From positions 64,001 to 128,000 of the forward strand of contig CAWJEN010000004.1 in the NCBI GenBank assembly GCA_963841915.1: a DNA stretch of 64,000 nt, written 5' to 3'. The position numbers were made by a program. The DNA comes from an uncultured Planctomycetota bacterium. GTDB taxonomy: Bacteria; Planctomycetota; Phycisphaerae; Tepidisphaerales; Tepidisphaeraceae. Shown here piece by piece: positions 18,001 through 23,375 of the stretch; position 1 is the stretch's first letter; every line of letters starts with the position of its first letter.

Positions 18001-21000
18001 GTCGGCGGATTGGCCGGCAGGATGATGGAGAACGTCGCGCCGCCTCCGGGCTCGCTCTCGACTTCAAGCCTCGCCTCGAGCAGATCGGCTGCGCAACGGG
18101 CGATGAACAGGCCAAGCCCCGAACCGCCTGAGGTGTGGCTGCCAGCGCCACGATGGAATCGGTCGAAGAGTGTGGATGCCTGCCCCTCGGCGAGGCCGGG
18201 ACCACAGTCGCAGACGCTGATACGGGTACCGCCATCGTCACCGACGGACTCTTCGTGCTTCAGGGTGATTGGTCCCGCATCGCCGGCATACCGGATCGCA
18301 TTTCTTAGGAAGTTCAGCAGGATGCTCGTCAGCAGGTCGGGGTCCGTCTCGACAAGGACCGTCGGCTCACAGCTGACGAACACGACAGCTTTGTCCGTAT
18401 CCTCATCACCGCAAAGGTCTTCTGCAAGAACGGCGTCTGCCGATCGCGCGACGGCTCTTGCGACGCCGGCCATCAGAGGTGCCAGCTCCACCTTCCGCGG
18501 TTTGACTGTCACCGCCGCCGCACCGGCCCGAAGACGCTCGGCCTCGAGCACTCGCGTCATCGTGTGCAGCGTCCCGTCAATTAAGTGACGTGCATCAGTC
18601 GCGTCGCGGGCAAGCTCGCCTGCCTGCTCGGTCGAAAGATCGTTACTCGCAAGCCCGCGGCTGATGAGCCCGAGCGAGAGGGTCGCGCCGCTCAGTGCTC
18701 CTCGAAGATCATGCGACAATGCCGCCAGGAAGCGGCTCATGGCCTCTGCCTCCAGACGCGCCCGCTGCTCCCGCAGGTCGGCAAAGCTCACGGCCGACGC
18801 TGCACCGAGTTCATCGAGCAGGGCGTGAATCAGATCCGACTCCCGCGAGTTCGGTCGACGTCCTAACTCCTCGCGCAGAGAGTATTTGACGCTGTGACGC
18901 AGCACCGCGTTGCCGACGAGCAGTTCACCCGTCGTGAAGTCCTGCCCGTATCGAGCGACTGCGTGAGCGGTGCCTGCGAGTCGAAACTCGACGGCCGGCC
19001 GCACGCGACGATCGGCCTCTCCCACTTCAGACTCCGGCCGGATGATGCGGACCATGGCGTCGATGCACGTCACCAGGTCGTCCAGTACGCCCGCATCAGT
19101 CAAGCCCTTCGTGCTGGCGACAGACTTGCGAAGGGCGTCGACGTGCCGCGCACAAATCCTCGCCTCTGAGGCTTCTACGCGCCTCGGCCAATGCGTGACG
19201 TTCCTCCTCGTCCAGCTCATCAAGGAGTTCGAGGACTACATTGTGACCGATGGGCGAAGAAACGTCCGTCGAAAAGTCGCTCACCACGCCCCCGGGTTGG
19301 ATGATTGTTTGCATGGCGGTAGCGGAGCAGGAGGTGTCGACTGGAGTACGCGCGTTTATCGAGCGGGGTGTCCGCGACTGCTACGCCAATGGGAGTCAAT
19401 TAGTTCCGGCTACTGCGGAAAATCACCCAGAGGATTTTCGTGCCGGCCATGAAGGTGCCGCGGACGGTTCCCGTGATCTTGCTGACGCCGATCCGCTGGC
19501 GGTACTTTGCGGGAACTTCGCGACAGCGAAGGCCGAGCTTGGCCGCCTTGACCTGCATCTCGACCGTCCAGCCGTAGGTCGTGTCGGCCATCTTCATCTG
19601 TTGCAATGCCGCCCATGAGACGCACCGGAACGGGCCTAAATCGGTGAATGTCTCGCCGTACAGCTTGCGGATCAGGAAGCATGCCAGCTTGTTGCCAAAG
19701 ATCGCCTGCGGGAGCAGGGCACCCTTGGGCTGCCTGGTCAGCATCCGACTGGCCAGCACCAGGTCGGCCTCACCTGCGACGACGGGGCCGACCACCTCGC
19801 CGAGCTGGTCAGGGTGGTCGCTGAAGTCGGCGTCGATGAAGGCAACGGCCTGCGGTGGATCCTTTGCAATTTCCGCTAATGCCGCCAGACATGCTGACCC
19901 GTAACCCTGTTGGGTGGCCGGTACGACGGTCGCGCCGAACTTGCGGGCGACATCTGCGGTGTAATCCGTCGAGTTATTGTCCGCTACGACGACGCGGCAG
20001 TGCCAACGCTCGGGCAGTGCGTCAATCACGCGGCCGATGCTCGCCTCCTCGTTCCACGCCGGAATGACAACGGCCACGTCGGCCCGCTCCGACTTGACGA
20101 CGCTGGTGGTTCGTACGTCGGCTTGGTCGAGCGCGGCCATAAGAAAGGTTATGGCCGTCATCGAAAGAAGTTAGATTGCCATTGTACGGCAGAGTGGGAT
20201 GGCTTACGCTTGCAGGCCGTGGCAAGTCGCCGATCCAGCTTCGTATCGCATTGCCGCGTGATTGGTGGCACGGTGCTGGTTTGGACGGCGACGCTGGCTT
20301 ACCTGTTGCTCCCAGCTGCAAACGCCGTCCACGCGGTTGCACACACTGCCGAGCATCACGACGAGCATGTGGCGGTCGACGACGTTGCGGATGAACCAGC
20401 TTCATCCCACGGATCCGATTCATCCCACGGATCTGCGTCGCATGAAACACCGTCACACGATCATTCGGATGAGTCGTGTCAGACGTGCTTGCTCCTGACC
20501 AACGCCGGCAGCCTCGCGACGATCGGCATCGTGGCCCCGGCCGTTCTGCCGGACCCGCCGACCTTCGCGGCTGAGTTAGTCATCGTCGAATGCGTTGCCT
20601 GCGACCGTGCCACGCCCGCGCAGCCGCGTGGACCGCCTGCCATTCTTCTTTAACGTCAGCCGGGCGATTCTGCCAAGGCTGCGTCTGCGTGTCGTTGGTT
20701 CGCCCGAGCCGCTACACGTCCCTGCTGAGCTTGCGTTGGCCGATCACATCACGTGATGTTGCTGCGCCGCTTTCGCCTCTCGTTTGAGACACATCATGAA
20801 CACTCGCCTCCACCGGGCCGGCTTCACGCTGGTCGAGTTGCTCGTCGTCATCGGCATCATCGCGTTGCTCGTCGGCATTCTCCTGCCGACGCTCGCCAGT
20901 GCTCGCGTTTCCGGCCAGGCAGTCGTCTGTGCCAGCAACATGCGACAGCTCGGGACGGCCATCACGCAGTACTGCGATGACAACGGCGAGCGATACCCGC

Positions 21001-23375
21001 AGGGCAGACACGATTCGGGGACTAATGCCTGGAATTCGTGGATTCACACGCTCTCGCCATACGTCGGCGATGTCGACGAGATTCGCCTGTGCCCGGCTCA
21101 CGAGCGTGGGCATGAGTGGCTCGACGACAGCAACAACACGCTCACCGTCACGCCTGAAGGCGACTCCTACACGACAGGCAAAGGCACGAGCTACAAGCTC
21201 AACATCTACATCATCGAGCCGGTCGAGCGACAAGTTGGCCTGACCTTCCTCGAGGTGGCTGATTTCACGCGGCGCTCCACGATTCCGAGTTCGACTGAAG
21301 CGATTCTGGCCTTCGAGACGAGCGATCGCATCGTTGAGTACGACGAGGCGGCCGACCACACGCACAGCAACGAATGGTTCTTTTCTGCCGACGCCAATGA
21401 CCGTTGGCAAGCGGTGCTCGACGACATCCAGCCCGATCGTCACGCCACGACCACCACGCCGGATCGCGACGAGGGACGCTCGAACGTCCTGTTCGCCGAC
21501 ACGCACGTCGCCCCGCTGCAGGCGGGCAAGGTCCGGCAGGACATCCGCGACAACTTCAACTTCGCCTACCCGCCCGGCCACCCGACCTCCCCGAACTAGC
21601 ACGCCATGCGCACCCTCACAACCTCCCTTGCTGTTCTCGCTACCACGACCGCTGCCAGCGCCATCGACATCCGTCTAGCCAGCGGCGTCGTGCCTCTGAC
21701 CTTCGCAGTCGAGACCCAGATCCCCGGCTCGCAGCCGCTCGATAACGCCCACGTCGACGTCCAAACGCCTTACCAGGCAGGCGGCTCGTTCGGCAGCCGC
21801 TACCAGACGGTCGGCACCGAACCCGCAGGCACCCCGGGTGACAGCCACCTTGTTGTCAATCCGACCAATCGTCTCAACCTCGACGCCGGTGGCCTTGCCA
21901 ACTTCGACTTCATCGGCGCGACGCCCGACGAAGATTTCTGGCTCCTGCCCCAGGGGCAAAGGCCCGGCGGGTTGAACTACCTCTACCTCGGCGTTGCCGC
22001 CGACGCCGTCTCGCAGGGGGCCCGCAACGAGATGGTGCCGTGGAATCCGCAGGATGCCCGCGTCTCCAGTACACCTAACCGCTGGATCGAGTGGCAGCTC
22101 AGCGACGTGCAGTCGCCCAGCGGCAACGGTGACTTTGCCGTGTTTCAACTTTCCAGCGGAGGCGGCAGCACCGTCTTCATGAGCACCGTCGACAGCATCA
22201 CCAGCGACGACCAGCTTTGGATGGCAGCCGGCAGCCACGGCCATTACAACTGGTCCTTCACCGAGCAGGGCGTATGGACCGTCGAAATCAGGGCCTTCAC
22301 CCGCGTCGACCTCGATGTCCTGCCGGGCGACGCCAACCTGGACGGCACGGTCAGCATCCTCGACTTCGCCATCCTGCGGGCCAACTTCGGTAGCGGCAAC
22401 AGTGCCTTCAACCTCGGCGACCTCAACGATGACGGCGTCGTCTCGATCCTCGACTTTGCCATCCTGCGGGCCAACTTCGGCACGAGCCTGACAATCAGTC
22501 AGCTCGCAGCCGTGGACGCCTGGTACGCCACCGTCGTGCCGGAGCCGGCTTTAGCCGGAACCCTCCTTCTGGCCGCAGGCGCATCACTGACGCGTCGGCG
22601 GGTCTGATGTTCTGTTATCGCTTATTTCTCAATCCGTCTTCCGGAGACCCTGAACATGCACGCTTCCACCATCATCGCCCTCGCCGCCGCTTCTGCGGCA
22701 ACACCCGTCCTTGCCCAGACCAACCTTGACGGCGGCCACTTCGACATCGAAGTCGAGACCGTCTTTGGCCCCAACGGAACCGTCGAGGAGATCGAGCTCA
22801 TTCTCGCTAACGAGGACGAGGGCAACCCGCCGTTCCCGTCCATCGGTGAGCTCGAGGCCGACGAGGCCGTTCTCGTGCCCGGCAACATCCGCACGCAAGG
22901 CACCGCACTCGGTGGCATCGCAGCCGGCTCGACCGTCTACTTTGTTCCCGAGCAACAGGACTTCGAAACCCTCTGGCTCGGGATCGGTAGCGAAGAAACT
23001 GGTGCCGGCGTGATCGTCGAAGATCAATACGTCCTGAATCTTGTCGGTTACACCGGCCCGGGCACCTTCGTCGTCAGCCAGGCCAGCCTCGGCGGGCCGA
23101 TCATCAGCATCGACACCAGCGACGGCCTCACAGGCGATGCGCTGATCGCCAGCACCGTCGGTGACAGCCACTACGACTTCGCCTTCGACACCATCGGCAC
23201 CTACGAGCTGACGTTCGAAGCAACCGGCACGCTCACTCCCGCCTTTGGCGGCGGTAATGTCTCGGCAATCTCCACCTACACGTTCTCCGTTGTGCCCGAG
23301 CCGACCACGGCAGCAATGGTCGGTCTTGCCGGCCTCGCCATGCTCCGCCGTCGGCGGGCCTGAATTGCACACGGA

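Follow-up and report, generated by a model that had tools for sequence, protein, structure and literature searches.

What does a metal-sensing leader peptide of the DUF2946/CruR type control when it stands directly ahead of a pilin gene, and which metal would it sense? The question is raised by a small ORF in the window, the 64,000-nucleotide stretch of planctomycete DNA that was analysed. The characterised DUF2946 members, CruR and CutF, sense copper in opposite directions. CruR (Bp2923) of Bordetella pertussis is presented in PMC9426467 (2022) as the first transition-metal-responsive uORF, with no zinc riboswitch described, and its translational arrest is demonstrated in PMC12992588. The reading preferred here, at a probability of roughly 0.6, is that the window ORF acts in cis as a CruR-like leader peptide, which responds to shortage of a divalent metal, most likely zinc, by switching on a cassette that scavenges metal at the cell surface. 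The anatomy of the leader, its conservation, its specificity for one pilin subfamily and its exchange with Fur-family control are shown by the sequence comparisons below.

Identity and Anatomy of the Leaders

The first-pass annotation reported two leader ORFs in this genome, and both were recovered, on contigs C4 (+ strand) and C6 (- strand).

20219..20653 (C4:84219-84653), + strand: DUF2946/CruR-type leader ORF, 144 aa (Pfam match and motifs)
20477..20488, + strand: CxxC (CQTC) codons, putative metal sensor
20627..20638, + strand: RGPP codons, putative arrest motif
C6:1401110-1401532, - strand: second leader, the C6 copy

The window leader is absent from the gene calls because of its poor codon score. 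It had been placed at C4:84260-84653; that end was kept, while the start was moved to a GTG at 84219 (window 20219), which is likelier because it retains the basic N-region before the hydrophobic stretch. The layout is then a basic N-region, a hydrophobic segment (residues 14-30), a His-rich linker, CQTC, a 46-residue spacer, RGPP and a 4-residue tail. The hydrophobic segment is a membrane or export segment judging by hydropathy (1.81), and the C6 leader has one as judged from the alignment. There are 11 His in the window leader and 3 in the C6 leader. According to PMC9426467, members of the group have CxxC 45 +/- 2 residues ahead of a C-terminal RAPP-like motif; the distance measured is 46 residues in the window leader and 44 in the C6 leader (approximately 45-50 had been given earlier), and both have RGPP.

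The window leader matches PF11162 with 33.3 bits, above the gathering cut-off of 23.7. The C6 leader does not reach this cut-off (21.1 bits, E 5.5e-4), and it matches the other leaders at every invariant position of the alignment. The earlier genome-wide E-values (1.7e-7 and 3e-3) were reproduced, together with three weaker matches that lack the motifs. A loose six-frame pattern has five matches, and the claim that the genome holds only two such ORFs stands, since leader-like sequence and a Pfam match coincide in these two only.

Across 28 leaders with about 21% identity, the residues H, C, C, R, P and P are invariant. The CxxC-RxPP spacing is 43-48 in 75/75 leaders, which had been preselected at 41-50. 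All 11 pairs compared have pN < pS, with pN/pS at 0.16-0.25 in four of the five closest. Similar to CruR, the leader is the first gene of its operon at both loci, with an export-like N-terminus, CxxC about 45 residues before a near-C-terminal R[AG]PP, a long intergenic region behind it and Rho encoded in the genome. Unlike CruR, it has RGPP as its motif (RAPP, RPPP, RDPP or xGPP in relatives), and its hydrophobic segment is followed by an invariant His. CutF of Rhodobacter capsulatus (PMC9973294; bioRxiv 10.1101/2025.02.05.636593) shares the DUF2946 family, the exported leader and a proline-rich stall, which is predicted here; it differs in having CxxxC, and in being copper-activated and opening a stem-loop before a detoxifying oxidase.

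The Cassettes behind the Leaders

In the window the leader heads one prepilin gene and two choice-of-anchor M PEP-CTERM genes, and a similar cassette follows the C6 leader.

19400..20161, - strand: gene for a family 2 glycosyltransferase, divergent, with 57 nt between it and the start of the leader; cassette boundary
20654..20795, + strand: intergenic leader region, 142 nt, folding into hairpins, with weak C>G skew
20796..21599, + strand: prepilin-type (N_methyl, DUF1559-like) protein of the DHxH subfamily (profile matches, alignment, pilin-like model)
21606..22607, + strand: choice-of-anchor M protein with dockerin and PEP-CTERM-like tail; modelled pilin partner
22656..23363, + strand: second choice-of-anchor M PEP-CTERM protein, retaining GH-x-D, with Asp replacing the first His of HxH
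23376..23449, - strand: tRNA-Val(CAC), convergent; cassette boundary

That each leader lies directly before a prepilin gene, followed by one or more PEP-CTERM genes, was borne out by counting on the sequence, with leader-pilin gaps of 142 nt (window) and 65 nt (C6). In those gene calls of relatives that were read, the glycosyltransferase gene does not adjoin the cassette. The window leader region has neither an intrinsic terminator nor a sigma-70 promoter, and its 142-nt gap has no Rfam match; no Rfam riboswitch was found in seven loci scanned. The C6 gap contains a 7-bp hairpin followed by CTTTT near the pilin start. In CruR, the cargo is a TonB receptor with PepSY; in this genome it is pilin and PEP-CTERM proteins, the context points to zinc, and the rut signature is weak. 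C>G skew is positive in 33/35 leader ends and 31/35 gaps (means 0.19 and 0.17, the leader-end figure being inflated by Pro codons), compared to means near 0 and 0.03 in the controls; the two loci of this genome show little or none of it (0.13/0.02 and -0.06/0.08). Exosortases, PilT and secretins are encoded in the genome.

A Pilin Subfamily Tied to the Leader

The window pilin starts at ATG 20796 and has the conserved residues H71, D186-H187-x-H189 and W193 (numbering from 20799). Its prepilin motif scores 27.4 bits against PF07963 (cut-off 21.2) and 22.1 against TIGR02532 (cut-off 16.3). Matches to PF07596 (DUF1559, SBP_bac_10) cover only the N-terminal part and reach 22.7 and 22.2 bits against a cut-off of 23.3, which a relative, L050, exceeds (29.4 bits). 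The predicted structure is type IV pilin-like, and its 17 best matches by fold consist entirely of pilins and pseudopilins (best Z 5.2, rmsd 3.4, 121 aligned). Foldseek gave no match at E 0.001. Scans of named genomes yielded no named member of the DHxH subfamily; one was empty, and the other gave general prepilins, which were used as controls. An Atlas look-up returned unnamed clusters for the pilin and a low-score lead (0.75) for the C6 cargo.

Pilin genes next to PEP-CTERM genes are frequent in this genome (14 of 39 prepilins). Chance adjacency is excluded, since the leader occurs at 2/39 prepilins, the same and only two that carry DHxH, and at none of 74 control pilins. Counted in reverse, a leader homolog is present at 38/59 DHxH-pilin loci, which are those of kin and not independent. 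For relatives, an association in 7 of 15 cases had been given; the present count is far higher, with pilin/PEP-CTERM cassettes behind 36 of the 40 leaders, likewise from kin, that have visible downstream DNA. Leaders before other genes are no objection, as they mostly head a probable outer-membrane barrel with a ZnuA-type ABC transporter, DUF4198, PepSY or a TonB system. ZnuA-type ABC systems stand behind leaders in two genomes of the class and seven of other classes, the ZnuA Pfam comprising Mn/Zn/Fe binders rather than zinc-specific proteins.

The leaders were also said to head these cassettes instead of TonB-dependent receptors. The cassettes are indeed there, and neither barrel nor plug domains of a TonB-dependent receptor were found in this genome (93.8% complete), as claimed. 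However, the contrast was overstated, given that PCuAC, YcnI, PepSY, efflux and HupE/UreJ genes are on record as neighbours of DUF2946 (PMC9973294 for CutF-like proteins before HupE/UreJ) and that DUF1559 follows RAPP uORFs in the source data of PMC12992588. Absence of a TonB receptor is no precondition either, because one relative (G246) has the cassette and a TonB-receptor-like gene behind the same palindrome (see below).

PEP-CTERM Cargo and Its Modelled Contact with the Pilin

The two cargo proteins of the window are the sole choice-of-anchor M proteins of the genome, as first annotated (NF038134, 66.8 and 64.2 bits, cut-off 55). The first has H30-x-D32 and H192-x-H194 (numbering from 21663). 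The C6 cargo is not an NF038134 member (13.3 bits), and its description as His-rich did not hold, with just 6 His in about 230 codons. HxH occurs in 65/80 anchored cargo proteins, compared to 0/70 other PEP-CTERM proteins. A single superfamily for all cargo is not supported, as profile comparison with choice-of-anchor M gave probabilities of 9.7 (26-row unnamed set) and 1.0 (C6 cargo), with only the HxH...G-Y/W strand aligning. PDB sequence searches with two cargo proteins gave nothing useful. A wide fold search with the cargo reached Z 5.0 at best, the level of ordinary beta-sandwiches, and gives no indication of its fold or of a metal site.

A model of the complex between pilin and cargo scored 0.78, compared to 0.00 for the best of three controls; the score mark, reached by 116/157 solved pairs and 2/215 mismatched pairs, is roughly applicable to this model, for which own alignments were used with zinc riding along. 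At least 52% of the contacts recur between runs, partner pLDDT is at least 88, and the HxH histidines lie outside the confidently named interface residues. On this model, contact between the two proteins is somewhat favoured.

Exchange with Zur-Like Control

A Zur-like palindrome or a Fur-family gene is carried by 15 of the 21 DHxH-pilin cassettes that lack a leader. The palindrome, ATGCAA-N5-TTGCAT with at most two mismatches, precedes 10/21 leaderless cassettes, compared to 6/67 leaders and 1/77 control pilins. It sits shortly upstream of the cassette, in the position expected for a repressor site, and matches the candidate Zur site of Desulfovibrio, itself a prediction (PMC545781). In relatives it also precedes a TonB-receptor-like gene, ZepA, MerC and a fasciclin/folE pair that is His-rich. 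The Fur-family proteins beside the cassettes score best against PerR or Fur models in five of six cases, all below cut-off. The two cassettes of this genome lack a Zur-type operator (best sites with 4 and 5 mismatches), and no site with one mismatch or fewer exists anywhere in the genome.

ZepA lies inside cassettes L083 and L131, and COG0523 behind L131. By its pilin, the window copy is most closely related to L131, which also has a Fur-family gene, and to L132, which has the palindrome. The ZepA model NF040463 (cut-off 75 bits) is passed by L083, L131 and L141 with 215-249 bits, whereas none of the three cargo proteins of this genome matches it at E 0.1. Taken together, the comparative evidence leans towards zinc over copper as the metal sensed, which the first-pass annotation had not named. 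A His-rich, Met-poor composition was discarded as a zinc marker, since copper-receptor leaders were mixed in the 27 published rows judged by eye.

Alternative Explanations

It is rather unlikely that the metal sensed is nickel, cobalt or manganese, or that there are several such divalent metals, varying by copy, in which case the two cassettes of this genome may differ in metal. One pilin cluster with a leader at its head (L285) contains NikR, which, like the DUF4198 that follows C6-type leaders (L032, L054 and L271), suggests nickel or cobalt in some copies, HupE/UreJ genes are preceded by CutF-like proteins that are His-rich, and the ZnuA family is broad. However, the closest pilin relatives of the window copy carry the Fur-family, ZepA, COG0523 and palindrome signature, and the anchored-repeat ABC genes of C. 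diphtheriae are zinc/Zur-repressed.

There is a similarly low chance that regulation is as proposed and that the metal held by the cassette serves adhesion, storage or detoxification (with induction by metal, as for CutF) and is not imported. CutF does act in the opposite direction, the window cassette contains no inner-membrane or ABC transporter, and the hairpin with CTTTT precedes the C6 pilin start. Nevertheless, the co-regulated genes are of uptake and zinc-sparing types, and the palindrome is placed as for a repressor.

Copper sensing as in CruR, with a cassette that scavenges or buffers copper, is quite improbable. The leader shares CxxC, spacing and arrest motif with CruR, copper is the metal of the two characterised family members, Cu(II) can bind His sites, and published copper-receptor leaders may also be His-rich. 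On the other hand, the chosen cargo scanned (46 + 31 + 18 + 23 proteins) contained nothing recognisable as a copper chaperone, OprC or a multicopper oxidase, and a crude copper motif scan of 115 loci gave two matches, neither a copper gene; the exchanged regulator is of the Fur family and the neighbours are ZepA, COG0523 and ZnuA.

Finally, a SecM-like monitor of protein export or thiol redox state, with metal incidental, is very unlikely: RAPP/RGPP peptides are classically Sec/YidC monitors, the cargo is all exported and CxxC may be a redox motif, but in this genome the leader is confined to precisely those pilin operons with His motifs (2 of 39), and in relatives it gives way to Fur-family control or stands ahead of metal ABC systems.

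A Possible Mechanism and Its Implications

In the preferred reading, a zinc-type leader switching on metal scavenging, the steps at the leader would be those of CruR. Without metal, a ribosome stalled at RGPP would keep the downstream genes expressed. Metal bound by CxxC and nearby His of the nascent chain would release the stall, whereupon Rho-dependent termination or a hairpin would shut the cassette. The motifs and the structure model further suggest that exosortase-anchored PEP-CTERM proteins may hold metal via H-x-D and HxH, and that the DHxH pilin may dock on these proteins, bring its own His site next to the bound metal and carry it inward on a retractile type IV filament. That the leader is functional and metal-responsive is highly probable, and repression of the cassette by metal is likely. 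Metal uptake is the best reading of these leader, pilin and PEP-CTERM modules; import driven by the pilus is a tentative proposal, rather less likely than not.

Parts of this picture have precedents. The bare pairing of RAPP leaders with DUF1559 genes is already published, uninterpreted, in the Fig. 4B source data of PMC12992588, where 112 RAPP and 68 AAPP uORFs precede DUF1559 genes (6.5-fold) and the RAPP leaders listed are, like the window leader, His-rich with CxxC. It is a table entry only: the main text contains neither 'DUF1559' nor 'zinc', and in the passages and sections read there is no mention of a DHxH subfamily, of cargo with PEP-CTERM or of an exchange with control of the Zur type. 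ZepA (All3515; PMC10957091), a Zur-linked zinc-scavenging exoprotein, resembles the cargo in its signal peptide, His site and PEP-CTERM, differs from the choice-of-anchor M type seen here, and is described in a text where the word 'pilin' is absent. The window cargo domain overlaps, below cut-off, the models of the anchored-repeat ABC/CmrA surface proteins of actinobacteria (TIGR03769/03772/03773; PMC6711530), but it is PEP-CTERM/dockerin-anchored and paired with a pilin. The MUL2 pilus-like locus of Akkermansiaceae (PMC13174399), likened by description and not by sequence, also links pilin-like proteins of the PVC superphylum to substrate capture, of glycans rather than metals.

It is tempting to speculate that a zinc-sensing arrest leader replaces Zur and controls a TonB-independent route, in which an exosortase-anchored surface protein passes zinc to a dedicated pilin and, by extension, PVC DUF1559-like pilins are substrate-specific receptors, each with a neighbouring surface protein; this full scheme is, as it stands, unlikely. 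If true, the swap between a leader of zinc type and Zur-like control would add a new, post-transcriptional way for cells to sense zinc. DUF1559-like pilins and PEP-CTERM proteins are greatly expanded and function-unknown, and for one subfamily of them the cassette would give a first concrete, proposed ligand, partner and inducing condition. It may also point to a candidate receptor scheme for exoproteins of the ZepA kind where TonB receptors are few or absent.

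The cassettes in this genome

The first-pass annotation had placed DUF2946/CruR-type leader genes before pilin and PEP-CTERM genes at two sites, and this arrangement is real at both: the ORFs, motifs and gene order were confirmed in the sequence. The window cassette contains the following features.

20219-20653, +, leader ORF, uncalled, PF11162 match above the cut-off
20796-21599, +, prepilin gene
21606-22607, +, PEP-CTERM-type gene
22656-23363, +, PEP-CTERM-type gene

It is limited by a divergent glycosyltransferase gene on one side and a convergent tRNA-Val gene on the other. 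The window leader has CQTC and a 46-residue spacing to RGPP. The leader on contig C6, with CAVC, a spacing of 44 and RGPP, scores under the PF11162 cut-off and precedes a prepilin gene and a single PEP-CTERM gene. At the C6 locus (L001), the end of a 443-aa gene (8252-9583) is repeated nearly exactly in 11430-11906, about 2.3 kb apart, so that both copies flank the cassette; this is possibly a trace of cassette insertion.

At 93.8% completeness, the genome contains 45 prepilin motifs along with about 100 PEP-CTERM-like ORFs. That it lacks a TonB-dependent receptor, as also proposed earlier, is borne out at this completeness, since no TonB barrel or plug was found. The gene content suggests that the source is a planctomycete, probably a member of Phycisphaerae.

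Conservation across the class

The leader-headed cassette is real and conserved across a class. A profile search gave PF11162 matches in 54 of 251 class genomes. Among the 56 non-self matches 48 were examined, the eight omitted being weak and in most cases containing stops or spanning very long frames; leaders make up 41 of the 48, with downstream DNA visible for 40. The next gene is a prepilin gene in 33 of these 40 cases, while in three a PEP-CTERM gene comes first and the prepilin second. A probable outer-membrane barrel lies downstream of another three, with a ZnuA-type ABC system too in both loci traced further, and a TonB receptor with TonB/ExbBD follows one leader. Canonical DHxH is present in 31 of 36 leader-associated pilins; of the remaining five, two precede DUF4198 and one precedes PepSY_TM.

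The reverse search started from the pilin. Its C-terminal profile matched 106/251 class genomes, mostly once each, and 1/272 genomes from other classes; only 16-20 candidates in each genome entered the scoring. Sixty pilin loci, none found via a leader, were taken in rank order, with some congeners and contig ends passed over. A strict R[AG]PP leader stands at 27 of the 60. At the 59 DHxH loci, an RxPP leader (including RPPP and RDPP) is present in 34 and a homolog ending in xGPP in four more, giving 38 leader homologs. The leaders evolve as proteins, and H, C, C, R, P and P are kept in 28/28 aligned leaders. In 92 pilins, where DHxH is at 100% by selection, H71 (85%) and W193 (91%) are kept independently of that selection.

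Endings in RPPP, RDPP or arginine-less xGPP occur at unchanged spacing in three sets of homologous leaders (L038, L081, L085, L086, L091, L097; L020, L109, L111, L114; L098, L104, L124, L127). Judged by sequence, these leaders are a natural series of variants of the putative arrest motif. The leaders at L032, L054, L271, L043 and L001:11111-11533 belong to a subtype marked by a GHxRG segment and an additional CC pair; in three loci this subtype precedes a non-DHxH pilin and DUF4198.

Adjacency and histidine

Adjacency by itself is common: a PEP-CTERM gene lies within 1.5 kb of 14 of the 39 prepilin genes in the whole genome, which suggests a general habit of pilin-surface-protein cassettes. 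The distinguishing mark of leader-type cassettes is histidine, not this adjacency. Of 39 prepilin ORFs tested in this genome, two have a leader and the identical two have DHxH; in a control set of 74 prepilins from 79 loci, the counts are 0/74 and 1/74. HxH occurs in 65/80 anchored cargo proteins versus 0/70 other PEP-CTERM proteins of this genome, with histidine contents of 2.2% and 0.4%, respectively.

Among the cargo, an unnamed PEP-CTERM/dockerin-anchored family carrying H-x-D, PG and HxH is the most frequent (L033-L126, 55 proteins); its scanned members have no family match except their anchors. In two genomes that belong to different families, a large membrane protein with a spermidine-synthase domain follows the cassette (L058:4122-6428 and L108:4268-6643). 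A MacB/FtsX-type ABC transporter, together with DUF3299, follows the cassette at L036:3932-6830; in another genome (L137), a transporter resembling it is found next to the palindrome described below.

Leaders beyond the class

In other classes, 16/141 genomes have the leader. It precedes a barrel and a ZnuA-type ABC system in six, a barrel first in three more, ZnuA first in one, pilins in three (one cluster with NikR), another barrel-like gene in one and no called gene in two. The cluster at L285:450-5699, with several pilin genes and nikR (PF08753, 105 bits), is probably a nickel version. The proteins encoded between leader and ZnuA-type genes across the phylum (L046:8282-9727, L059:8436-9860, L274, L275, L280) form a family of probable outer-membrane barrels whose Pfam match is weak at most. 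Downstream of the ZnuA-type operon in L275 (6243-7793) lies a second small ORF, hydrophobic at its start, followed by an exported gene that begins CDSCGC; this ORF is possibly another leader type.

Which metal

The palindrome ATGCAA-N5-TTGCAT (at most two mismatches) lies upstream of 10 of 21 leaderless cassettes and a Fur-family gene beside seven, one or the other being present in 15; the palindrome also occurs at 6/67 leader loci, against a background of 1/77 and 1.9% of flank windows. It matches a candidate Zur site of Desulfovibrio, ATGCAACnnnGTTGCAT, listed in PMC545781. Nine exact sites in three of five relatives scanned precede the cassette (three), ZepA, MerC, a His-rich fasciclin/folE pair, a TonB-receptor-like gene, an ABC transporter and one unassigned gene. 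Cassettes L083 and L131 both contain a gene for ZepA, described as a zinc uptake mediator in Anabaena (PMC10957091). Choice-of-anchor M overlaps anchored-repeat models, under the cut-off, and genes annotated as anchored-repeat are reported as zinc/Zur-repressed in C. diphtheriae (PMC6711530).

In a quick tree of the 92 pilins, with four xGPP loci scored as leaderless, the leader label switches 15 or more times, and strong branches force nine of these switches. The nearest rows to the window pilin there, L131 and L132, are both leaderless (support 81).

A good palindrome is absent from this genome. Its sole Fur-family protein (C6:220172-220696) lacks the usual Cys pairs, and its ZnuA-family ABC operon (C6:1656556) has two permeases and no nearby palindrome at up to two mismatches. 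Counting against zinc, the operator and the regulators are predictions, and PerR or Fur models give the top scores for most cassette-adjacent regulators. For some copies, the presence of NikR and DUF4198 suggests nickel or cobalt instead. A second palindrome type, AT-rich and Fur-box-like, was seen only by eye upstream of the L068, L087, L112, L121 and L126 cassettes.

Regulation and a model for the cassette

DUF2946 leaders have already been noted in a few planctomycetes (PMC9426467), and non-copper members were anticipated in PMC9973294, where a figure legend names a pilin signal class as one of the features on which such leaders and their neighbours were scored. The source data of Fig. 4B in PMC12992588 contain RAPP uORFs upstream of DUF1559 genes. 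In Caulobacter, DUF2946 genes are reported in operons whose expression drops when zur is mutated, and one of these is an efflux operon activated by Zur (PMC4176598). Our literature search, mostly outside subscription journals, found no paper describing the cassette, its DHxH pilin or an arrest peptide that senses zinc.

The leader has the sequence features of CruR, the copper-responsive leader of Bordetella pertussis, and its action is taken to be similar, although no copper gene was recognised among the cargo scanned. By analogy with the CruR account in PMC9426467, a ribosome would stall on the leader without metal; with metal, the stall would be released and Rho termination would follow. Rho is present in the genome. 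Leader ends and gaps are C-rich in relatives and weakly so at both loci here. In the C6 gap, a hairpin of 7 bp is followed by CTTTT, and the copies may therefore differ in their output step.

Single-chain models of the pilin and the 21606-22607 protein reached pLDDT 86 and 87. Modelled in complex with the pilin head, this protein gave a score of 0.78 (best of three controls, 0.00). Among solved pairs 116/157 reached the mark, as did 2/215 mismatched pairs; these counts apply only roughly because our own alignments were used and zinc was included. Runs share at least 52% of contacts, with partner pLDDT of at least 88. For neither ligand-binding part did the fold searches reveal a close relative of solved structure, making recall less likely. 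The modelled interface comprises hairpin 143-152 and the residues flanking DHTH on the pilin side, and a face with H30, G190 and N196, beside HxH, on the partner side. The model supports, without demonstrating, a pair of adjacent metal sites. Exosortases, PilT and secretins are present in the genome, and we hypothesise that metal might be imported by pilus retraction.
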